From the NCBI GenBank assembly GCA_934754475.1, contig CAKVHV010000002.1:951-64950 (forward strand): a stretch of DNA of 64,000 bases, read 5' to 3'. Shown in pieces: positions 2,665 to 62,490 of the stretch. Position numbers and translations under genes: made by a program. Source of the stretch: an uncultured Clostridia bacterium (GTDB taxonomy: Bacteria; Bacillota; Clostridia; Christensenellales; UBA1242). The notes under the pieces were generated by a model, which worked only from the letters and a program-made list of their open reading frames with translations, was not told the DNA's origin and made no database searches. Each line of letters starts with the position of its first letter. Position 1 is the stretch's first letter.

Positions 2665-3252
2665 TTAATTTTTTATTTTTTGTTCATTCTTTTTTATAAG
2701 TTCGCTCGTTGTATAAATTTGTGTCACTTCAAAATTTGTTGGATTTAATGCTTTTAGGTCATTGTAAAGTTGTTCAGAAATAACCATTTGAGCTCCATCT
2801 TTTATATAGAAAAAATTATAGTTATTTGGTATATTATTTATAATTACACTCTTTATAGCTGTTCCCAAAACTCCATCCATTACACTATTTTCTCTATCTA
2901 GCACATCTATTTTATACTTTGTCCTTAGAATATAGTATGGTTTTAAAATCCCTTCATCTTTTGCAAAACACTTGTAAAATTCTATTTCATCAGAATATTT
3001 TTCTTTAAGCATCGTATATATTCTTTCAGAAACTATAAGTTCAGCCCAGTCGTTAAGTAGAAAATCTGATATGGGTTCGTCATTTTTATAACTCTTATCT
3101 CTTTCAAAGATGATTGGAGTGTTAGAAAACCCCTTAAACGATTTTCCAATATCCATAAATTCATAATATTCAACATATGGTTCATAATCATTTAAAAAGT
3201 TTGCATACTTTTTTGCACAATTTGTTACTAATCTAATTTCAAAATATTTCAT
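2665..3252 (-). CDS. Hypothetical protein, weakly resembling Imm11/DUF1629-type immunity proteins
   Basis: 195-aa ORF with an ATG start. The segments ..ELIVSERIYTMLKE..EIEF.. and ..MVISEQLYNDLKAL..NFEV.. recall the DUF1629 pattern. The family assignment is from memory only. Confidence 0.4.
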   Translation of the reverse strand: MKYFEIRLVTNCAKKYANFLNDYEPYVEYYEFMDIGKSFKGFSNTPIIFERDKSYKNDEPISDFLLNDWAELIVSERIYTMLKEKYSDEIEFYKCFAKDEGILKPYYILRTKYKIDVLDRENSVMDGVLGTAIKSVIINNIPNNYNFFYIKDGAQMVISEQLYNDLKALNPTNFEVTQIYTTSELIKKNEQKIKN

Positions 3253-3350
3253 CTATTAATTCTCTCTTATCTCCAAAATACCTTATATTTACTATCTGGA
3301 TTATTCATAACTTTGTTAAATGTTTTAATTTAATCATTTGTTATCCTGAA

Positions 3351-3998
3351 TTATTTCAATTTATCTTGTTCTTCTTGCGGAATCTCCCAGTCTATATCTC
3401 CCCAAAAAGAATTTGCAATTGCCGGAATCTTTCTACACCACTTTTCTTTGTTTGGGTGTTTGCGATAACCATTTTCATCATATTCTGGAGTTAAATATTT
3501 AAAATAATAATCCATCAATTCTTTTATTGAATTAAAGACTTTAATAGGTTCTACTATTCCATTTGGCGAAACATATATTTTTGGATTGTTAATCTCAGAT
3601 TGTTTATAATAAAAATTATAATTTCCCACTCCGCCAAAAAACACAATATCATCCAAAATTTGCTTGGAAATTTTTTTATCGGTTATTTCTTGATGTTTAT
3701 TGTAATCATTCAAAAAGAACTCCATAGGTCTCGACACCCCTACACCCAATCCATATATAACTATAGAAGAAATAAATAAACGACAACCATTGTAGAATTT
3801 ATAAAATTCTTTTAATTCTGGCAACAACACTATATTGTATGTTTTTTCAAAATTATCATAATAATTCTTATCAATTTTTTTACATAGATAGTGCAAATAT
3901 GTCTCACCTGATATTTCTTTCATGACAACATAAACTTTACCTTCATCGTTGTCTTTCTCTAATTTCCATTTCTTTTGCAATAACTCATCTAAGTACAT
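3351..3998 (-). CDS. SMI1/KNR4 (SUKH-1) family protein, immunity-protein-like
   Basis: LPELKEFYKFYNG and FFGGVGNYNFYY motifs are typical of SMI1/KNR4. ATG 3998 follows GGAGAG by 6 nt, so it is preferred over the TTG 4010 of the ORF track. Confidence 0.6.
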   Translation of the reverse strand: MYLDELLQKKWKLEKDNDEGKVYVVMKEISGETYLHYLCKKIDKNYYDNFEKTYNIVLLPELKEFYKFYNGCRLFISSIVIYGLGVGVSRPMEFFLNDYNKHQEITDKKISKQILDDIVFFGGVGNYNFYYKQSEINNPKIYVSPNGIVEPIKVFNSIKELMDYYFKYLTPEYDENGYRKHPNKEKWCRKIPAIANSFWGDIDWEIPQEEQDKLK

Positions 3999-4098
3999 AA
4001 TTCTCTCCAAAAAGTCTAATTTTGTCCATTACACAAGTATCCCTAACAATATATCTTTTATTTAGACTCATCCAAAATCCGTTTATTGACAACCATCA

Positions 4099-4485
4099 TT
4101 AATTTTTTACCACAATCCAACCAGCACCATTACTTCTTGAAACTTTTATTGGTTTAATTTGATTAACTCTATCTAGCCAAATAAGAGTACAATATTTCTT
4201 TTGAAGAGTTGCTTGCCAATTTTCAAACTTTTCTGTACCAATTTCTTTGCCATATTTTATTCTTATATCTTCAACAATTTCTGGTGTTAGTTCAAAGTAT
4301 TTAACGTCTTTAACTTTTGCAGTTGCTGTAACATCTTTGCAAGTTTCTTTTAGCAGTATCTCATCTCCAATTTTTACTTTGTTATATGGAGCAACTTTGT
4401 GCATACTCCACCTACTCTCAATTGTTTTTGTACCACTTAAAACCATATCAAAAAATGGCTGTCTTAAGATTGCAATATGTTGCAT
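4099..4485 (-). CDS. ASCH (PUA-like) domain protein
   Basis: N-terminus MQHIAILRQPFFDMVLSGTKTIESRW is typical of ASCH domains. 128 aa. Confidence 0.65.
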   Translation of the reverse strand: MQHIAILRQPFFDMVLSGTKTIESRWSMHKVAPYNKVKIGDEILLKETCKDVTATAKVKDVKYFELTPEIVEDIRIKYGKEIGTEKFENWQATLQKKYCTLIWLDRVNQIKPIKVSRSNGAGWIVVKN

Positions 4486-6966: not shown

Positions 6967-9525
6967 CTATTCACTTCTTAAACAAATAACTGGGTCTTTT
7001 TTGGAAGCAATTCTTGCTGGAACTGTTCCTGCAATTGTTGTAAGTACTGTACTTACTCCAACCAAAATAAGTGCATGTGTAAATTTGAGTGTTGCCATAT
7101 TTGTTGTAATTGTTCCACCTGCAATTGCCTTAATAATTGCACTAAGCGGAATTGTTAGAACCCAACTAAGAGTTACACCCAAAATCCCCGCAAAGAGACC
7201 AATTAAAATTGTTTCACTATTGAATATTCTCGAAATATCTTTCTTTCTAGCACCAATACTTCTTAAAACACCTATTTCTTTGGTTCTTTCAATTACAGAA
7301 GTATAAGTAATTATTCCTATCATTACAGACGATACAACAAGCGAAATCCCCGCAAATGCTATTAGCACATAAGAAACAATATTTACAAGCGAGCCAAGAG
7401 TGGTTGTCAAAAATCCAGTTGTATCCGAATAGACAATCTTTTCGCTATCTTTTTCAACCGAAGAATTATACTCATCTATTAATGAAATAATCCTATCTTT
7501 TGCATCAAAATTTTTAGGATAAAACTTAATACTTACTGGAATACTGCTAATTCCAATTTGTTGCATAGCAACATCAAAAGCATCATCATTTGACAAAGTA
7601 TATCCATATTGTAGATTTAAAAAGTTATTGATTTGTGCAACATCAGAAAAACCTTCTGTAGGCAAAATTCTTTGTAGTTCTGTAACTGACAAAACGTAGT
7701 TATCATAAAAAGCAAGTGAATCTTTGTTTGCCAATTGTTTCCTAGCAATTAGTGAATTTCTGCAGTTATTTGCATAAAAATTATCAAAACTAGAAATATA
7801 TGCAAGCCCCGAACTAAGAATTTCACTTGTAGCATCTTCTTTGATTCTAACTATTCCCGAAATTTTGAGTGTAACCGAAGCATTTTGATAAGCATTATAT
7901 AATTCAACTTGGTCAGTTATATCTAGTTTGTCAAATTTGGTTATACTATCAAACTCACTACTGTCTGCAGTGTAATAATCGTCATTAAATAAAACTTTGT
8001 ATTCTTTGTTGCAAATATCTTCAAAGGAAATATTTTCATATTCTCCAAGTTCATTTTTTGTAGGCTTAAGTCCAATATTTTCAAGAACACTATCCGAAAT
8101 TTTATTTCCCTTGCCAATTACCAAAACCATTTCGTTTGAATAACCTTCAGCATTATTTTTAGGAAGTGTGCCATAGACCAAATCATATTGTTCCATAACA
8201 AAATCCATGTTTTGATTAATAGGATAAATCGTGCTACTAATATCTCCCGACATAATACTAGTTGAATTTTGTCTTTGGATAAACTGATACTTTCCATCGT
8301 CATTTTTAGCAAGCAATTTAACTGGAATATAATAGTTATAGTCAATCATATTAATACTTGGATTATGACTATTGGCATCATTCTTTTCAAATTCTTTTAC
8401 CTTTTCAACAAAACCACTAGTTAAATTGTTGTAATGTCCATAAGCCATAAGTCTTAGATTTGGATTGTATGGAACAACCACATCTCCACTTACGTCTTCG
8501 CTATCGTCATCCGCCCTTTCAAAACTAGAAAACTTGTTCATATCCACACTTATTGCCGAAATAGTAATAGGATAATTTCCAAGAGCGTCAGATTGAACTT
8601 TGTTTATGTAGTTATTCATTCCAGTCGAAACCGCAAGAACTAGCGCTATGCCAATTATTCCAATTGAACCCGCCAAACTTTCAATAAATGTTTTCCCACG
8701 TTTTGACCAAAGATTTTTTAGAGATAATCCAAAAGCAGTTCCATAACTCATCGAAGTTTTAATTTTATTCTTCTTTTTTCGTGCAGATTCTCTATCTAAA
8801 CTTTTGTTTACACTAATCGCATCTGACGAAATCTCTTGGTCGTCAGGATTGTACGGGTCAGTATCCCCAGTTAGTTCCCCATCCAAAATATTAATAATTC
8901 TTGTAGAATATGTTTTTGCAAGTTCTTCGTTATGTGTAACCATAATAATCAAATACTTGCTAGAAATTTTTTTGAGTAAATCCATAACTTGAACACTTGT
9001 TTCGCTATCCAAAGCGCCAGTAGGCTCATCTGCAAGAATTATTTTTGGCTCATTTACAATAGCCCTAGCAATAGCAACTCTTTGCATTTGACCACCAGAA
9101 AGTTGATTTGGTCGTTTTTTCATTTGGTTTTCAAGCCCAACTTCTTTAAGTGCCTTTATTGCTCTTTTTCGCTTTTCAGTTTTGCTAATACCAGCAATAC
9201 TAAGTGCCAATTCTACATTTTCAAGAATACTTAAATGCCCTATCAAATTATATGACTGAAATATAAACCCAATATAGTGATTTCTATAAGCATCCCAATC
9301 TCTATCCTTGTATTCCTTGGTCGAAACACCATTAATAACAATATCTCCCGAAGTATATTTATCTAGCCCGCCAATAATATTAAGCATTGTAGTTTTTCCA
9401 CATCCTGATGGACCTAAAATAGAAACAAATTCGTTATTTCTAAAGTTTATACTTACATTTTTGAGTGCATGAACTTCGTTTTCACCCGATAAATAATTTT
9501 TTGTAATATTTTTAATTTGAATCAT
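6967..9525 (-). CDS. Fused ABC transporter ATPase plus FtsX/MacB-type permease
   Basis: Walker A GPSGCGKTT, signature LSGGQMQRVAIARA and Walker B ILADEPTGALD, followed by a large extracytoplasmic region and C-terminal TM helices. ATG 9525 follows a GGGGGA RBS; the track's ATG 9537 has none. Confidence 0.85.
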   Translation of the reverse strand: MIQIKNITKNYLSGENEVHALKNVSINFRNNEFVSILGPSGCGKTTMLNIIGGLDKYTSGDIVINGVSTKEYKDRDWDAYRNHYIGFIFQSYNLIGHLSILENVELALSIAGISKTEKRKRAIKALKEVGLENQMKKRPNQLSGGQMQRVAIARAIVNEPKIILADEPTGALDSETSVQVMDLLKKISSKYLIIMVTHNEELAKTYSTRIINILDGELTGDTDPYNPDDQEISSDAISVNKSLDRESARKKKNKIKTSMSYGTAFGLSLKNLWSKRGKTFIESLAGSIGIIGIALVLAVSTGMNNYINKVQSDALGNYPITISAISVDMNKFSSFERADDDSEDVSGDVVVPYNPNLRLMAYGHYNNLTSGFVEKVKEFEKNDANSHNPSINMIDYNYYIPVKLLAKNDDGKYQFIQRQNSTSIMSGDISSTIYPINQNMDFVMEQYDLVYGTLPKNNAEGYSNEMVLVIGKGNKISDSVLENIGLKPTKNELGEYENISFEDICNKEYKVLFNDDYYTADSSEFDSITKFDKLDITDQVELYNAYQNASVTLKISGIVRIKEDATSEILSSGLAYISSFDNFYANNCRNSLIARKQLANKDSLAFYDNYVLSVTELQRILPTEGFSDVAQINNFLNLQYGYTLSNDDAFDVAMQQIGISSIPVSIKFYPKNFDAKDRIISLIDEYNSSVEKDSEKIVYSDTTGFLTTTLGSLVNIVSYVLIAFAGISLVVSSVMIGIITYTSVIERTKEIGVLRSIGARKKDISRIFNSETILIGLFAGILGVTLSWVLTIPLSAIIKAIAGGTITTNMATLKFTHALILVGVSTVLTTIAGTVPARIASKKDPVICLRSE

Positions 9526-9748
9526 ATTATCCCCCATAAGATAATTGTATTATATCACAAAACATTTTAAATTTAAATAAAAAACCACCTTATATTTATA
9601 ATTTATTCTTCACATTATTAAATGTGTTGATTAAATAAACATAATCATCACACACAAGTCCAGTTGCACAAAAAAAGATACCTATAAGGCATCATTTTGG
9701 TGCGGATAAATGGATGTGTATTAAGGAGACACATTGTCGACGTCAATT

Positions 9749-9792
9749 CTCGGGTGGCAGACATGTTCCATGGCTGACGAGTTCCCGAGTAC
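9749..9792 (-). other. Conserved 44-nt nested-hairpin motif, copy 1 of 3
   Basis: The minus-strand sequence gtaCTCGGGaactcgtCAGccatggaacatgtCTGccaCCCGAG is identical (44/44) to 12019-12062. 26 of 44 positions are G/C. Confidence 0.7.
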
Positions 9793-9860
9793 AATGCACG
9801 GAAGTGCTGGTAAGTCTCTCTTGAGACTTGTGTGCATTGCACACTCAAATCCAGTTGCAC

Positions 9861-9884
9861 AAAAAAAGATACCTATAAGGTATC
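9861..9884 (-). terminator. Terminator of tRNA-Leu(GAG)
   Basis: On the minus strand: gatacct-tat-aggtatc hairpin followed by T7. Confidence 0.6.
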
Positions 9885-9888
9885 ATTT

Positions 9889-9972
9889 TGGTGCGGATAA
9901 CTGGATTTGAACCAGCACGGGTCTCCCCACAAACACCTCAAGCTTGCGCGTCTGCCATTCCGCCATATCCGC
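9889..9972 (-). tRNA. tRNA-Leu(GAG)
   Basis: Manual cloverleaf. Acceptor GCGGATA/TATCCGC, anticodon arm CAAGC-TTGAGGT-GTTTG, long variable arm, T-loop TTCAAAT, encoded CCA. 84 nt. Confidence 0.9.
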
Positions 9973-10161: not shown

Positions 10162-11046
10162 ATGAAATTTTTAGATTTTTTAAAAAAGAAAAACGAAATG
10201 CAGAAAGCTGACGATGTAGCCAGCACAACAAATAATCAGGAACCAAAATCTGTGAATACACAAGCTGTTGTTGATGATTTCCAAGACATACTTGAACAAG
10301 AATCTTTAAGATTTTTCCCAGAAACCGGAATTTGGTTTAGTGGTTGTTTTTCGAGACCTAATGATGTAGCATACGCATATCTTCCTTGCCATTTGAGAGA
10401 TAATCTTTGGTTAAGCAAATTAATGCAGCAAAATCTTAGCGAAATTGGTGTTAATATTCCTTTAAATAAAATTAGGAAATTTGTTTCTACATCAGAAAAT
10501 TTCCAAGAATTAAGACATGCTTATGAACTCAAGATTGTCAAGTGGCAAATTGACTTTATAAAAAATGGTGGAGAAAATTGGGTTGCTCCAAAAGGATATG
10601 ACGAAGCATCTTTGTTATTTGGTGAAAATATTGACAAAATTATTCGTGGTGGAGTATCAAGAACTTTGCAATCAATTGGAATGAATTATGATGTAATCGA
10701 AGAAGGACTTGAAAAGTATTCAGATGAGTGGAGACCAAGTAGTATGATGCTTGGATTTAAAAACAAGTTTGAAAAACCTATGTTTTTGGATATTTCTCCA
10801 GAACCAGCTAGTTGGGAACATAGACAGAACTGGTTAGCAAACAGAGAATATAAATATTATCTTGAACATAAAGATTCCGTAGACAAGTATGGTACACCAA
10901 CTTCAGCCATGAAAATGACACCAGAAGAACATAGAGAATTAATTTCAATACTTAACAAACAAAATAATGACAGATTGGAATATATTAATGAACTAAAGAA
11001 GAATAGTGGTAGAGATTCTAAAGAATTTCATCAACCATGGAAATAA
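10162..11046 (+). CDS. Hypothetical protein (294 aa)
   Basis: Long ORF; ATG preceded by ataGGTGGtatatt. No family recognised. Confidence 0.6.
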   Translation: MKFLDFLKKKNEMQKADDVASTTNNQEPKSVNTQAVVDDFQDILEQESLRFFPETGIWFSGCFSRPNDVAYAYLPCHLRDNLWLSKLMQQNLSEIGVNIPLNKIRKFVSTSENFQELRHAYELKIVKWQIDFIKNGGENWVAPKGYDEASLLFGENIDKIIRGGVSRTLQSIGMNYDVIEEGLEKYSDEWRPSSMMLGFKNKFEKPMFLDISPEPASWEHRQNWLANREYKYYLEHKDSVDKYGTPTSAMKMTPEEHRELISILNKQNNDRLEYINELKKNSGRDSKEFHQPWK

Positions 11047-11550: not shown

Positions 11551-11768
11551 TAATTTCTCTTAACTCGTACAACTAAATATGGCCTATTAGCTCAGTAGGC
11601 GCGACGCGTTAATAAATTTTGCCAGTGGCAAGATTTTAGCCAAAGCGGGAGACACTTTAGGTGTCGACGGAAGAGTTTACTCTACCTACGCTCACTAGCA
11701 ACTCTGACTGATAGTTTATATAATTCCCTTAACTCGTACAACTTAATATGGCCTATTAGCTCAGTAGG
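11551..11768 (+). repeat. Direct repeats (11551-11599 and 11721-11768) around a 121-nt GC-rich insert. The upstream repeat ends in an orphan 19-nt tRNA-Lys 5' fragment
   Basis: taatt(t)c(t/c)cttaactcgtacaact(a/t)aatatggcctattagctcagtagg occurs twice. The second copy continues into the intact tRNA-Lys; the first runs into cgcgacgcgtt... Confidence 0.85.
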
Positions 11769-11828: not shown

Positions 11829-11911
11829 GCGGATGTGGCGAAATTGGCAGACGCACCAGACTTAGGATCTGGCGGGAAACCATGGGGGTTCAAGTCCTCT
11901 CATCCGCACCA
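11829..11911 (+). tRNA. tRNA-Leu(UAG)
   Basis: Acceptor GCGGATG/CATCCGC, anticodon arm CCAGA-CTTAGGA-TCTGG, long variable arm, encoded CCA. 83 nt. Confidence 0.9.
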
Positions 11912-11917
11912 AAAAAT

Positions 11918-11939
11918 GCACCATTTACGGTGCTTTTTT
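11918..11939 (+). terminator. Terminator of the tRNA cluster
   Basis: gcacc-atttac-ggtgc hairpin followed by T6. The same hairpin recurs at 12114-12135. Confidence 0.65.
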
Positions 11940-12018
11940 GTTTCTTTATTCGCGTCCTTTAGTGCTTGACAGCACTTTGATTATTGCATAATCAGAACCC
12001 CCACTTTCCATGGGGAAG

Positions 12019-12062
12019 GTACTCGGGAACTCGTCAGCCATGGAACATGTCTGCCACCCGAG
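12019..12062 (+). other. Conserved 44-nt nested-hairpin motif, copy 2 of 3
   Basis: Outer stem CTCGGG/CCCGAG. Inner stem CAGCCATG/CATGTCTG has one C.T mismatch. Confidence 0.7.
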
Positions 12063-12213
12063 ATATATTCCTTTCAGGCATATAGACAAGTCCTCTCATC
12101 CGCACCAAAAAATGCACCTTTTACGGTGCTTTTTTGTTTCTTCATTCGCGTCCTTTAGTGCTTGTCAGCACTTTGATTATTGCATAATCAGAACCCCCAC
12201 TTCCATGGGGAAG

Positions 12214-12257
12214 GTACTCGGGAACTCGTCAGGCATGATACATGCCTGCCACCCGAG
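12214..12257 (+). other. Conserved 44-nt nested-hairpin motif, copy 3 of 3
   Basis: Same outer stem. The inner stem is now a perfect CAGGCATG/CATGCCTG, because both partners of the mismatched pair have changed. Confidence 0.7.
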
Positions 12258-12390
12258 ATATATTCTTTTCAGTCATATAAACAAGACTCTTCTCCCTACA
12301 TTACAAAATGAAACAAATAATTTTCAAAACCTATTGAAATTAGATAATTTGTATGATAAAATACTCAAAGAAAAAACTTGGGGGAAAATT

Positions 12391-12666
12391 ATGACAAAAG
12401 ACTTAAAAGATTATTTGATAGAAAATTACAGAAAGAAAGGAAACACTGCACAAAGAAGTCTACAAAGTTTACGTGACGAGTTAAAGCAACTAAAAAATTT
12501 AGACAAAACACTTAAGTTTAATGATACTGAACTTGCAATCATTAATAATTCTGACGATTACCTTAAAAATGCTTTAGACCAATTAGCTTTGGCTATGCTT
12601 TGTATTTCTAATATTCAAAATATATCTGATTACTCTGACGAACAAGATAACGAACTAATCAAATAA
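12391..12666 (+). CDS. Small hypothetical protein (91 aa)
   Basis: ATG 12391 follows a GGGGGA RBS. The upstream part of track ORF 12010..12666 merely translates the tandem repeats. Confidence 0.5.
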   Translation: MTKDLKDYLIENYRKKGNTAQRSLQSLRDELKQLKNLDKTLKFNDTELAIINNSDDYLKNALDQLALAMLCISNIQNISDYSDEQDNELIK

Positions 12667-14431: not shown

Positions 14432-15910
14432 TTACAACAAAATACAAATAACTCCGCCTTTGCCTTCATTGACAATACGACCCAAAGTTCTACGCATTTT
14501 TCGTTGAACTTCTTGTGGCATTACATGTAATTTGTTTTGTAAGTCGTCATTAACAAGCGAGTATAGACTTCTGCCAAAGACCTTGGTTTCCCACATTTCT
14601 TTTGGGTCACTCTCGAATTGTTCCATAAGTGATTTAACAAGTTCTTCTGATTGTTGCTCATTTCCGACCATAGAATTAACTTCTGTTTGAATATCTACTT
14701 GCATAATATGTAAACTTGGTGCGCTTGCTCTTAATTTTACGCCATATTTACCGCCAGATTTATACATTTTTGGTTCTTCCAATGTCAAGTCATTTGGGTC
14801 TGGATGCACAACACCATAGCCATTTTCTTTGACTTGTTCAATTGCATCTTTGAATTTGTCATATTGAACTTTGGCAACACTAAGTTGTTTGATGTATGAA
14901 ATCAAATGAAATTCGTCTTTGATTTCTTGATTACATTCACCACTAAGAACTCTATAATAAAGGTCTGATTTAGGAGTAAATGTAAGTGTAAGTTTTCCTT
15001 GACCCAAGTCAAGTGACTTAGCAATTTCAGGTTCAAAATCTCCCGAATTTTCCCCAAGAGAAACTGTTTCTGGAAGTTCATCAACTTTATCAAATGAATC
15101 AATAATTGATTTTACATTTTCAATAATGTTTTTGATAATATCGCTTGTGTAATCCAAGATTTGAAGCCATTCTGGGAACTTAATTGCAACTTTTTTAACT
15201 GGGAACTCGTGCAAAATTCCTTCAAATACTTCGTTTAAGTCATTATCTTCCATATTATCTACATTCAAAGGAAGAACTTTGGTTTTGTACTTATTATAAA
15301 GTGACTTAGCTAGATTAATAGTTTCAATATTCTTAGGATGTGTGGAATTAAGTACAATTACAAAAGGCTTTTTGCAATTTTTAAGTTCGTTTACAACCTT
15401 TTCTTCGGCTTTGATATAACTATCTCTATCCAAATCAGTAATACTTCCATCAGTTGTCACCATAATTGCAACAGTTGAATGGTCGGTAATTACTTTGTTT
15501 GTGCCAATTTCAGCCGCTTTTTCAAATGGAATATCGTTCTCATCCCAAGGTGTCGAAACCATTCTTGGGTGTGCATTTTCTTCGTGACCTAATGCACCAT
15601 CAACCAAATATCCAACACAGTCAATCAGTCTAACTTTGAAATTAACATCTTTGTCAAGACTTACACCAACTGCTTCACTTGGAATAAATTTTGGTTGAGT
15701 AGTCATAATAGACTTTCCATCTCCACTTTGTGGCATTTCATCTTTGGTTCTTTCCTTGCTATATCCTTCTGCAATATTTGGAAGCACAAGTTTTTCCATA
15801 ACTTTGGTTATAAATGTTGATTTACCAGTTCTAACTGGACCTACAACACCTATATAAATATCGCCATTTGTTCTTTCGGCAATATCTTTGTATATATTAT
15901 ATTCGCTCAT
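14432..15910 (-). CDS. spoIVA: Stage IV sporulation protein A (spore coat morphogenetic ATPase)
   Basis: Colinear with B. subtilis SpoIVA as remembered: IYKDIAERTNGDIYIGVVGPVRTGKSTFI (Walker A) through SQSEELV and the C-terminal NEGKGGVICILL. Confidence 0.95.
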   Translation of the reverse strand: MSEYNIYKDIAERTNGDIYIGVVGPVRTGKSTFITKVMEKLVLPNIAEGYSKERTKDEMPQSGDGKSIMTTQPKFIPSEAVGVSLDKDVNFKVRLIDCVGYLVDGALGHEENAHPRMVSTPWDENDIPFEKAAEIGTNKVITDHSTVAIMVTTDGSITDLDRDSYIKAEEKVVNELKNCKKPFVIVLNSTHPKNIETINLAKSLYNKYKTKVLPLNVDNMEDNDLNEVFEGILHEFPVKKVAIKFPEWLQILDYTSDIIKNIIENVKSIIDSFDKVDELPETVSLGENSGDFEPEIAKSLDLGQGKLTLTFTPKSDLYYRVLSGECNQEIKDEFHLISYIKQLSVAKVQYDKFKDAIEQVKENGYGVVHPDPNDLTLEEPKMYKSGGKYGVKLRASAPSLHIMQVDIQTEVNSMVGNEQQSEELVKSLMEQFESDPKEMWETKVFGRSLYSLVNDDLQNKLHVMPQEVQRKMRRTLGRIVNEGKGGVICILL

Positions 15911-18479: not shown

Positions 18480-19807
18480 TAACCATTCTCCTTGTCTGAT
18501 TTGCTTCTAAGTATAATTCTAATTGGAGTGCCTTTGAAATCAACCGCATTACGAATACAATTTTCCAAATATCTCAAATATGAAAAGTGCATAAGTTCCT
18601 TGTCATTAACAAAGACAATAAAAGTTGGTGGAGCGACGTCGGCTTGAGTCATGTAATAAATCTTGCATCTCTTTCCCTTTTGAATTGGTGGTTCGTTGAC
18701 AGCAACAGCATTAGTAATTATTTCGTTAAGCATGCTTGTGCCAATTCTAAAATTAGATTTAGCATAAACTTGTTCGACATTTTCCATAATTTTATTTAGT
18801 CTTTGACCAGTCAAAGCAGATACATAAACTGGAACAAAGTAACTCATAAATTTAAGGTCTTCATTCAAATCATCATTAAATTTATTCATCGAATATGAGT
18901 CTTTTTCAATCAAATCCCACTTGTTCATAACAACAATGCTAGGCTTTCCTTCTTCGTGAATAAATCCGGCTATACGTGTATCTTGTTCGGATAGTCCACT
19001 ACTTGCATCAACAACCAACAAAACCACATCTGCTCTACGAATAGCATCAAAAGCCCTAAGAACACTATAAAGTTCTACACTTTCGTTAGGAACAGACCTT
19101 TTTCGTCTAATTCCTGCGGTATCTATTAGCAAATATTCCTTTCCATTATAATTAAATGGTGTATCAATTGCATCTCTAGTAGTTCCGGCAACCGAACTAA
19201 CCATAACCCTATTTTCACCAAGTAATTTATTAATAATTGAACTTTTGCCAGCATTTGGCTTTCCTACAACAGCAATTTTAATCTTTTTGGCATCTTCTTC
19301 GGCAGAAATCTTAGTTTTAAAATATTTAACACATTCGTCCAAAATATCCCCAAGACCCTTGTTATTTTCCGCACTGCAAGCAAAAGGTTCGCCTAGCCCT
19401 AAGGAATAAAATTCATAAGTATTTTCAACTTGATTATTGTCTAGTTTGTTAACAACAAGCACAACTGGAACATTGTATTTTCTCAAAAAATTTGCGACAT
19501 CATAGTCTGCCGACACCAAACCTTCCTTGCCATCAACCATAAAGATAACAACATCGGCTAGTTCAACAGCAATTTCCGCTTGACGAGTTATATTATTTTG
19601 AAACTCGTCTTTGTTTTTTATATCCAAACCACCAGTATCTACAATAGAAAAAGCATAGCCACACCATTCGGCATCACCATAAATTCTATCTCGAGTAACC
19701 CCCGGCATATCTTTGACAATACTAATTCGTCTACCACAAATAGTGTTAAAAAAAGTACTTTTTCCAACATTTGGTCTACCAATCAAAGCAACTAATGGTT
19801 TTCGCAT
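18479..19807 (-). CDS. der: Ribosome-associated GTPase Der (EngA)
   Basis: Two GTPase domains (GRPNVGKST and GKPNAGKSS, DTGG and DTAG, NKLD and NKWD) plus a KH-like C-terminus. Confidence 0.95.
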   Translation of the reverse strand: MRKPLVALIGRPNVGKSTFFNTICGRRISIVKDMPGVTRDRIYGDAEWCGYAFSIVDTGGLDIKNKDEFQNNITRQAEIAVELADVVIFMVDGKEGLVSADYDVANFLRKYNVPVVLVVNKLDNNQVENTYEFYSLGLGEPFACSAENNKGLGDILDECVKYFKTKISAEEDAKKIKIAVVGKPNAGKSSIINKLLGENRVMVSSVAGTTRDAIDTPFNYNGKEYLLIDTAGIRRKRSVPNESVELYSVLRAFDAIRRADVVLLVVDASSGLSEQDTRIAGFIHEEGKPSIVVMNKWDLIEKDSYSMNKFNDDLNEDLKFMSYFVPVYVSALTGQRLNKIMENVEQVYAKSNFRIGTSMLNEIITNAVAVNEPPIQKGKRCKIYYMTQADVAPPTFIVFVNDKELMHFSYLRYLENCIRNAVDFKGTPIRIILRSKSDKENG

Positions 19808-20083
19808 CTTATTTCTCCTTATTCCTTTTTTGATAAGTATAATCTAGGAAGATTAAACAAAGTCGTCCCCACGGACACCTTGTTTTAATCTGACGAAGTT
19901 TTCAATCTATATGCCCACGATTTATCGTGGTTGTTGCTTTTTAAAGCAACGTGAGATTTGGTGCAACCTAATTTCACTTTTACACATTCCTTATCACACA
20001 TTCCTTATGATTATTGATTATATTATCGGAAGTTGTCGGCAAGCAGCCCAAAGGGATATTTGCCAGCAACTGATGTTTATTCA

Positions 20084-20166
20084 ATCTATGTAACCACGAT
20101 TTATCGTGGTGTTTGCGATAGCAAATTGTTTTGTGAATGTAATGAACAAAGCAATATCACATAGAT
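20084..20166 (+). ncRNA. Candidate structured RNA module, family C type B
   Basis: Closing stem atctatgt/acatagat encloses three hairpins: CCACGA..TCGTGG, TTTGC-gata-GCAAA and TTGTTTTGT-N11-ACAAAGCAA (one G.U). Confidence 0.45.
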
Positions 20167-20234
20167 TATAATCTAGGAAGATTAAACAAAGTCGTCCCCA
20201 CAGGACACCTTGTTTTAATCTGACGACGTTTTCA

Positions 20235-20319
20235 ATCTATATGTCCACGATTTATCGTGGTTGTTGCTTTTTAAAGCAACGTGAAATTTGGTGCAACCTA
20301 ATTTCACTAACATATAGAT
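20235..20319 (+). ncRNA. Candidate structured RNA module, family C type A
   Basis: Closing stem atctatatg/catatagat encloses three hairpins: CCACGA..TCGTGG, GTTGCTTT-tt-AAAGCAAC and GTGAAATT-N11-AATTTCAC. Confidence 0.45.
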
Positions 20320-62075: not shown

Positions 62076-62253
62076 TTTTGTTTTCTCCTTAATTGCCTAT
62101 TTTATAAGATTTTTTGTATTTTGCATAGTACTTATGCATAGTAGTAATAAATAGACTTGATTTAAAATTTATTATACATTGCAAATAAAATCTAGGAAGT
62201 TGAGAGTAACACAAGTGTTTTAAATTTGTATTACCGAAACGACGACGTTTTCA

Positions 62254-62337
62254 ATCTATGTGACCACGATTTCATCGTGGCATTTGCGATAGCAAATTGG
62301 TTTGTGAATGTAATGAACAAAGCAACTTTACATGGAT
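62254..62337 (+). ncRNA. Candidate structured RNA module, family C type B
   Basis: Closing stem atctatgt/acatggat with a U.G pair at 62257/62334. Hairpins as in 20084-20166. Confidence 0.45.
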
Positions 62338-62407
62338 TATAATAATCTAAGAAGATTAAACAAAGTCGTCCGCTAGGACACCTTGATTTAATCTGACGAC
62401 GATTTCA

Positions 62408-62490
62408 ATCTATGTGACCACGATTTTATCGTGGGTTTGCGATAGCAAATTGGTTTGTGAATGCAATGAACAAACCAATATCACATAGAT
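62408..62490 (+). ncRNA. Candidate structured RNA module, family C type B
   Basis: Perfect closing stem and a perfect fourth hairpin, TTGGTTTGT/ACAAACCAA. Confidence 0.45.

Follow-up and report, generated by a model that had tools for sequence, protein, structure and literature searches.

For tyrosine integrases, an attP in the T-stem region and displaced 3′ and 5′ fragments of the tRNA gene are standard outcomes (PMC4383910). The window analysed here, 64 kb of DNA from an uncultured, spore-forming gut Clostridium (SpoIVA is encoded at 14432-15910), carries short units behind two tRNA-Leu genes. As in tRNA islands and prophages made by such integrases, an intact tRNA gene is accompanied by a displaced fragment in direct orientation (PMC4383910, which cites Williams 2002), the crossover falls in the T-stem/loop, the 3′ end is supplied by the element, and arrays stand in tandem at one tRNA. 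The minority class of islands with a displaced 5′ fragment finds its match in modules in front of tRNA-Lys and tRNA-Ser. Unlike islands, the units have neither integrase nor cargo, only 175 nt instead of kilobases between the repeats, and covarying hairpins in the interior. In terms of the features by which islands are recognised, intact and displaced tDNA and a T-stem/loop crossover are present and an internal integrase gene is absent.

CIMEs are integrase-less elements flanked by att sites and arranged in tandem at a target gene's 3′ end (PMC5704250, which cites Pavlovic 2004). The original prediction had compared the units with them, and the comparison stands in that att-type ends are kept and genes for integration and transfer are lacking; it fails in that decay from a recognisable ICE or IME is not seen, no larger relative having been found in the collections searched. 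A CIME is what remains of a decayed ICE or IME, measures kilobases and has recognisable relatives, whereas the units are conserved, an order of magnitude smaller and without a known parent.

Integron attC sites and ORF-less cassettes resemble a hairpin of the units, called H, in having a conserved base, an asymmetric unpaired region, a variable top and an arrayed arrangement; breakpoints at or near the hairpin are a further likeness, though a resemblance only. Unlike integrons, the units lack IntI, attI, Pc and the R″/R′ GTTRRRY boxes (the H arms read CTCGGG/CCCGAG), their array is anchored in a tRNA gene, and every unit repeats the tRNA end. REP/BIME and MITE-type repeats are, like the units, short, palindromic, richer in G+C than the genome, intergenic and non-coding. 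In contrast to REP/BIME sequences, the units are not dispersed (all copies adjoin tRNA genes) and no RAYT was found; in contrast to MITE- or IS-derived repeats, they show no fixed short target duplication and no clear terminal inverted repeats, their ends having a weak TTGT.TCT / AGACAA similarity only. The 3′ETS-leuZ RNA of E. coli is a tRNA 3′ external transcribed spacer RNA, located between the tRNA and the terminator. The units are likewise non-coding and lie directly downstream of tRNA-Leu at the end of a tRNA operon; however, the terminator comes first in the units, and there is no sequence relation. In general, they are best filed as a variant of att-bounded integrase-less elements that is absent from Rfam and from the element collections searched.

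The tRNA-Leu(UAG) Array

tRNA-Leu(UAG) is the final gene of a Gly-Arg-His-Gln-Lys-Leu operon. The features behind it, all on the plus strand, are as follows:

11829-11911, plus: tRNA-Leu(UAG) (ARAGORN and Rfam)
11912-11939, plus: bidirectional intrinsic terminator of unit 1, A5-GCACC-loop-GGTGC-T6
11954-12022, plus: four-way junction of unit 1, closing stem GTCCTT/AAGG(T)AC around hairpins hp1, hp2 and hp3
12019-12063, plus: hairpin H of unit 1
12063-12086, plus: terminal hairpin hp5 of unit 1, ATATAT..ATATAGA, adjoining the next repeat
12087-12281, plus: unit 2, with repeat copy 2 at 12087-12107
12108-12135, plus: terminator of unit 2
12157-12172, 12174-12190 and 12195-12210, plus: hp1, hp2 and hp3 of unit 2
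12214-12258 and 12258-12281, plus: H and hp5 of unit 2
12282-12310, plus: decayed third copy of the tRNA 3′ end, CAAGACTCTTCTCCCTACATTACAAAATG

The original prediction had drawn attention to a duplicated tRNA end, and its account of the anatomy was borne out. The terminal 21 nt of the tRNA (11891-11911, CAAGTCCTCTCATCCGCACCA, from C56 in the T-loop to CCA) recur exactly at 12087-12107, and the two head-to-tail units of 196 and 195 nt are identical at 185 of 196 aligned positions. A UAG-type unit begins with these 21 nt and the terminator, and 175 nt lie between the repeats. The two-unit array is also found in the independent assemblies L001 and L010. UAG-type terminators are bidirectional, and the copies in units 1 and 2 differ at a single loop base (alignment index 32). 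The terminator stem begins 7 nt past CCA, directly behind the tRNA and ahead of the structured part, so that the structured part is not a simple 3′ trailer of the tRNA.

All three short hairpins reported for unit 1 are present (hp1 11961-11976, hp2 11978-11994, hp3 11999-12015), and folding of the units compared with shuffles gives z of -2.5 to -4.2. The ORF at 12010-12666 exists and turned out to be, as had been suspected, an artefact of reading through the repeats: the gene called in related contigs comprises 12391-12666 only (91 aa). The decayed third copy at 12282 is weakly similar to the repeat. In register it beats 19,993 of 20,000 shuffles, and an equal score is reached by just 0.05% of the 29-mers in the window; by local alignment alone it is not significant. 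A promoter scan inside the units returned one weak match only (9/12, 12235-12264). No replication origin or terminus lies nearby, and the GC skew keeps its sign.

Hairpin H is 45 nt long and consists of the outer stem CTCGGG/CCCGAG, an asymmetric internal loop (AACTCGT / CCA), an inner stem CAG..CTG and a variable top. The G+C content originally reported for a 44-nt hairpin, 26/44 as compared to 31% across the window, was reproduced, as was the change of a C.T mismatch into a G-C pair of the inner stem between the units (C to G and T to C, indices 147 and 159). H of unit 1 is 100% identical to 9748-9792 on the minus strand. The motif occurs three times in the window vs. 0.04 expected, always behind a tRNA-Leu gene, and all 14 known instances adjoin a tRNA gene. 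In nine variants, which range in length from 34 to 42 nt, the outer stem and the CAG/CTG base are invariant and the top varies in sequence and length. Units at three different tRNAs, and units of a separate species, have the H core in common. When 666 kb of related DNA were searched with a covariance model of H, known copies only were recovered; a weak match in L027 lies within a coding region and was taken as chance. The GAG-type copies of H in the sister species differ from the window H at three positions, while H is identical at both window loci, and exchange between H copies is therefore indicated. The reverse strand of H (12049-12056) also holds TGGCAGAC, the D-loop/D-stem octamer of both tRNA-Leu genes (9945-9952 and 11845-11852); about 0.09 chance matches are expected, and this may be a coincidence.

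Related Modules at Other tRNA Genes

The suspected related copy proved to be real: it lies behind tRNA-Leu(GAG) and extends over 9649-9909, with a 70-nt direct repeat and H. Together with a module before tRNA-Lys, this brings the window total to three tRNA-end-duplicating modules.

9889-9972, minus: tRNA-Leu(GAG)
9840-9909, minus: copy 1 of the 70-nt repeat (tRNA-Leu(GAG) 3′ end, terminator and 22 nt)
9719-9839, minus: interior of the GAG-type unit, 121 nt, with three hairpins, H and hairpin B
9649-9718, minus: copy 2 of the 70-nt repeat (tRNA-Leu(GAG) 3′ end, terminator and first half of hp1)
11555-11768, plus: mirror-image 5′-type module before tRNA-Lys

The three hairpins of the GAG-type interior (9793-9839) are unrelated in sequence to hp1-hp3 of the UAG type; H lies at 9748-9792 on the minus strand, and hairpin B reads CGTCGACA-ATG-TGTCTCC. 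The module before tRNA-Lys has a 45-nt direct repeat on either side of a 124-nt structured insert, the repeat being composed of a 26-nt leader and tRNA-Lys bases 1-19, so that it ends at G19 of the D-loop. Since the reverse strand of this insert and the stretch from H to the repeat in the GAG-type unit have the motif CGTCGACA-loop-GTGTCTCC in common, the 5′-type and 3′-type modules are related and mirrored about the tRNA body. The 5′-type module sits within a tRNA operon and must therefore be transcribed. The insert is absent from L007 and L013. The 5′-end-duplicating family was also observed in L012 (19600-19790, minus strand) and upstream of tRNA-Ser in L070-L077. Its repeat of leader plus tRNA bases 1-19 ends at G19 of the D-loop in every case, and the module is made up of an AGT-loop hairpin with a variable stem, followed by TAGCCAAWGC and a hairpin GACRC..GYGTCGAC.

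A scan of JGI metagenomes for H returned two loci and revealed an H unit behind a copy of the tRNA-Ser(GGA) 3′ end in a second species (GCA_900753945.1), and the tRNA-Ser layout was seen in eight further contigs. The array opens with tRNA-Ser and a cassette that carries the gene for a 195-aa membrane protein and ends in ..ACAATA; a 10-nt partial repeat and an H unit ending in ..CTCTCAATA follow. ORF cassette and H unit stand in series, each closed by ..CAATA plus the tRNA 3′ repeat. Allele A (five contigs) goes on with the complete 20-nt repeat, then the native flank and ~75 nt from the start of the same gene, and allele B (three contigs) has unrelated sequence with different genes, the break lying 3 nt before the repeat. 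Upstream of tRNA-Ser, the number of 5′-type modules per strain is 0, 1, 2 or at least 3, and these modules are built from a ~62-nt sub-repeat of varying stem, constant AGT loop and constant flanks. Families differ in the length of the direct repeat, which measures 20, 21 or 70 nt and, at tRNA-Ser, about 200 nt. A common start, C56 of the T-loop in CAA(G/A)TCC, is seen in the families Leu-UAG, Leu-GAG and Ser-GGA.

Distribution, Rearrangements and Conservation

The closest named genome is the unit-bearing MAG “Clostridiales bacterium UBA11490”, with 86-90% nucleotide identity in the flanking genes. Source samples of the loci include SAMEA4765766, ERR636349 (L012 and L035) and Hadza samples (L014). 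Related loci were anchored on SpoIVA, and the percentages given per locus are SpoIVA identities. L014, L038 and L039 (84%) have tRNA-Leu(UAG) followed by two units; the 21-nt repeat is present in three perfect copies, and the third precedes a different terminator. Such a set of perfect repeats with a changed final terminator is the classic signature of insertion. L013 (91%) has one full UAG unit and one truncated past hp3 (1.6 units), the UAG site of L012 (97%) has the terminator, hp1 and hp2 only, and L016 (70%) has the terminator, hp1-3 and AAGGTA, without H. A plain terminator with no units is found at L018, L020, L046, L056 and L058. The distribution of units among relatives is thus patchy, and their copy number differs among assemblies: GAG-type units number ~4.6 in L012 (partly N gaps) vs. 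1.4 in the window.

Assemblies break or show N gaps at the tRNA-linked arrays of L002, L012, L013 and L034; the gaps in L012 fall at 14941-15150, 15362-15553 and 19306-19525, and L002, L013 and L034 have contig ends there. L035 has an apparently empty GAG site; outside the array, 15 kb of it match L012 at 100% identity. Its value as a clean empty site was downgraded, since with this identity the difference may be due to assembly collapse or to heterogeneity within the sample. Because assemblies break or gap at the arrays, and L035 and L012 differ solely there, copy numbers from short-read assemblies are unreliable.

L007 and L009 are two assemblies of one strain with flanks 98% identical to the window. 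In both, the 2.3-kb segment between two inverted H copies is inverted. As a result, tRNA-Leu(GAG) faces the 91-aa gene, its own three hairpins being joined to a top and right flank of H of the unit-2 type, and the UAG operon points towards the ABC transporter and carries a truncated H; the units are hybrids. The inversion is derived, because outgroups have the window orientation, and its location between H copies shows that H is a recombination breakpoint. In L058 (12133-12650; 74%), a more distant relative, the Gly..Leu(UAG) operon as a whole has the opposite orientation to SpoIVA and lacks units, so the operon seems to have flipped more than once in the lineage.

Between species, the units are 78-79% identical vs. 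58-66% for control spacers, the shuffled baseline being 56%. The stems are kept through compensatory changes between species, which agrees with the conserved secondary structure claimed in the original prediction. When five UAG-type units are aligned, pairing holds in 94.7% of the cells, and 9 of the 42 pairs have changed on both sides; the covariation score was reached by none of 500 shuffles, and slid controls pair in 29-46% of cells. As the five units represent just three independent lineages, the covariation is supportive and not conclusive. Junction bases are nearly invariant across related modules. The hand-defined arms contain 232 Watson-Crick pairs, one G.T and two A.C, and both strands fold about equally well, the reverse strand as well or better. 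With both strands folding alike and wobble pairs near absent, the strand of the folded form is not callable. Judged by these comparisons, the module interior is under purifying selection.

Database Searches

In agreement with the original prediction, no recombinase gene was found in the 64 kb: no ORF of the window matches a recombinase, transposase or HUH domain, and about ten ORFs belong to no family. Phage_integrase has no match among the window ORFs, and the 175-nt interior of the unit has no ORF. The Pfam gene listings of about ten related loci contain no integrase, and neither a RAYT nor a transposase was found in the window. The units are conserved above neutral spacers, their stems carry compensatory changes and they are integrase-less; therefore, they are not merely decaying scars beside an integrase-bearing island.

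Patterns of H gave no matches in GTDB species representatives or in IMG/VR, the sensitivity of both searches being limited to exact patterns, and blastn against phage and plasmid collections gave none either. Within the same limits of sensitivity, H did not turn up inside a larger parent element in any of the GTDB representatives, JGI metagenomes, IMG/VR, phages or plasmids. The 21-nt repeat, searched in IMG/VR, was recovered in phage tRNA arrays and anticodon-type att sites only. The covariance models of Rfam 15 found tRNAs only, at the gathering threshold and at E <=10, on both strands.

Several known motifs and systems were considered and rejected. A hammerhead-like CUGACGA on the reverse strand of H reads CUGACGG in L012-L014; a T-box-like GGGUGG has its bulge on the wrong side and no Rfam match; and a tRNA-like cloverleaf from hp1-hp3 would have loops of 3 nt only, ARAGORN finding no tRNA. 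Elements of the IS200/IS605 type, IS110 with bridge RNA and casposons make no target duplication or a short fixed one, vs. 20-200 nt here. A serine integrase site was rejected because the length of H varies from 34 to 42 nt.

L002, a sister strain 99.86% identical up to position 11911 of the window, has an altered variable arm and T-arm of tRNA-Leu(UAG) at 7690-7904, and the foreign 3′ half of this tRNA runs into foreign tRNA-Arg(UCU) and tRNA-Gln. L010, a second contig from the same sample, has the window arrangement. L002 looks like an integrated tRNA-carrying element with an anticodon-side crossover, and its foreign 3′ half with tRNA-Arg and tRNA-Gln suggests that another element uses tRNA-Leu(UAG).

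Other observations in the window concern different sequences. An intergenic repeat of ~95-150 nt, aatctaggaagattaaacaaagtcgtcc..ccacgatttatcgtgg, occurs in tandem pairs (19838-19930, 20166-20260 and 62342-62438) and as partial copies (20040-20110, 62190-62300), is also found in L013 and L014, and has no Rfam match at the gathering threshold. A 294-aa ORF with no family match (10162-11046) lies between the divergent promoters of tRNA-Leu(GAG) and tRNA-Gly; it is present in the window and L002 and absent from L007, L012, L013 and L035. Genes of immunity type (Imm11, SUKH/SMI1-KNR4, ASCH) form a run at 2665-4485, upstream of the ABC transporter, and have the look of a polymorphic-toxin immunity island.

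Possible Origin and Role of the Units

The reading that we favour, at a probability of roughly 40%, is that the units may be non-autonomous, att-bounded mini-elements kept under selection at a site that runs from the tRNA T-loop to the 3′ end. At ~190 bases, the modules look like integrase-type insertion elements smaller than any seen so far. Our evidence consists of comparative anatomy, from which we infer the mechanism. Each module would bring a replacement tRNA 3′ end, a replacement terminator, the three-hairpin junction, H and the terminal hairpin. The founding insertions would have been made by a tyrosine-type site-specific recombinase acting in trans, whose gene may lie at another place in the genome or on a visiting element. 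Arrays would gain and lose units through accretion at the repeats or unequal crossing-over between them, and the conserved hairpins would serve as cis signals read on single-stranded nucleic acid; scarce wobble pairs and frequent 3-nt loops lean towards DNA rather than RNA for this signal.

With their start at C56 and end at CCA, the duplicated tRNA 3′ ends have the integrase-type att geometry that the original prediction ascribed to them. The arrangement repeat-module-repeat at three tRNAs, the C56 start and the mirror family ending at G19 match the traces of tyrosine integrases at tRNA genes (PMC4383910). However, the 175-nt interior, the lack of a known parent and the conserved, covarying interior do not fit that picture. 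Against mini-elements it also counts that no recombinase was found in the 64 kb or the related loci and no larger H-bearing parent in the collections, that the sole empty GAG site (L035) is ambiguous and there is no clean filled/empty pair from independent samples, and that the length of the repeat differs by family. Moreover, homologous recombination alone could explain the dynamics after the first repeat, and covarying hairpins are not accounted for by arm-type binding sites. For excision by an integrase, a circle of 196 bp is very small.

Stems that covary together with conserved junction and loop bases are also found in functional RNAs, and the conservation beyond neutral spacers, the folds more stable than shuffles and the bidirectional terminators would suit a host-selected structured RNA or an RNA-level signal, the tRNA-end repeats then being relics of an old integration and of unequal crossing-over. 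Such an RNA could come from read-through of a weak tRNA terminator or from the opposite strand, closed by the bidirectional terminator, and the 5′-type relative inside the tRNA operon is transcribed. We consider this possible, if on balance unlikely: Rfam yields tRNAs only, the promoter-like match inside the units is single and weak, the sense strand has the terminator ahead of the structure, and the pairing, nearly all Watson-Crick, is unusual for RNA and gives no strand signal. The C56 start of the repeat in three tRNA families is left unexplained, and the patchy occurrence in close relatives speaks against an essential role in the host. It is doubtful, too, whether H is a folded-hairpin recombination site like attC, in arrays docked at tRNA loops, with a recombinase swapping whatever lies between H copies or tRNA-end repeats. 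The invariant base, asymmetric loop and variable top of H fit a single-stranded hairpin rather than a duplex site; breakpoints fall in or next to H (the inversion with truncated H in L007, the L016 unit, cut off immediately before H), and the break of allele B at tRNA-Ser is close to the repeat. H identical at two window loci and different in the sister species, and the alternation of ORF cassette and H unit at tRNA-Ser, point the same way. However, no IntI-like gene and no GTTRRRY core were found, the position of the breakpoints varies, homologous recombination could by itself produce an inversion at a perfect 45-bp inverted repeat, and the few known instances of H all lie beside tRNA genes.

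With two repeats present, expansion and loss need no special enzyme, the final repeat of the window is decayed and truncated units are common; all this would be expected if the units were neutral scars left by a single ancient integration, multiplied through replication slippage or unequal crossing-over and without present function. We disfavour this account as improbable, because the units keep their identity in a setting of practically randomised control spacers, stem changes are compensatory, and the H core is common to units at three tRNAs and in a separate species. Mini-elements, a functional RNA and an attC-like site in a cassette system are not mutually exclusive. On a broader and rather speculative view, to which we give little credence, the 3′ units and 5′ modules would together represent an undescribed recombination system with tRNA T- and D-loops as docking sites. 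This would amount to an integron-like cassette platform in tRNA genes, with hairpins (H; the AGT-loop hairpin and TAGCCAAWGC) as cis signals and with gene-free or single-gene cassettes inserted, stacked, inverted and lost via a recombinase encoded elsewhere.

Significance

The arrays break or collapse metagenome assemblies at tRNA operons, and island finders that need an integrase gene will miss such units. If the hairpins are RNA or single-stranded DNA signals, they would represent a new family of structured motifs, linked to class II tRNA genes in a gut lineage that is poorly known. If the units are mobilised in trans, as the mini-element reading holds, they would be about ten-fold smaller than known integrase-dependent hitch-hikers, in effect a self-propagating site the size of an attP, and would mean that tRNA attachment sites can gather conserved non-coding cassettes.
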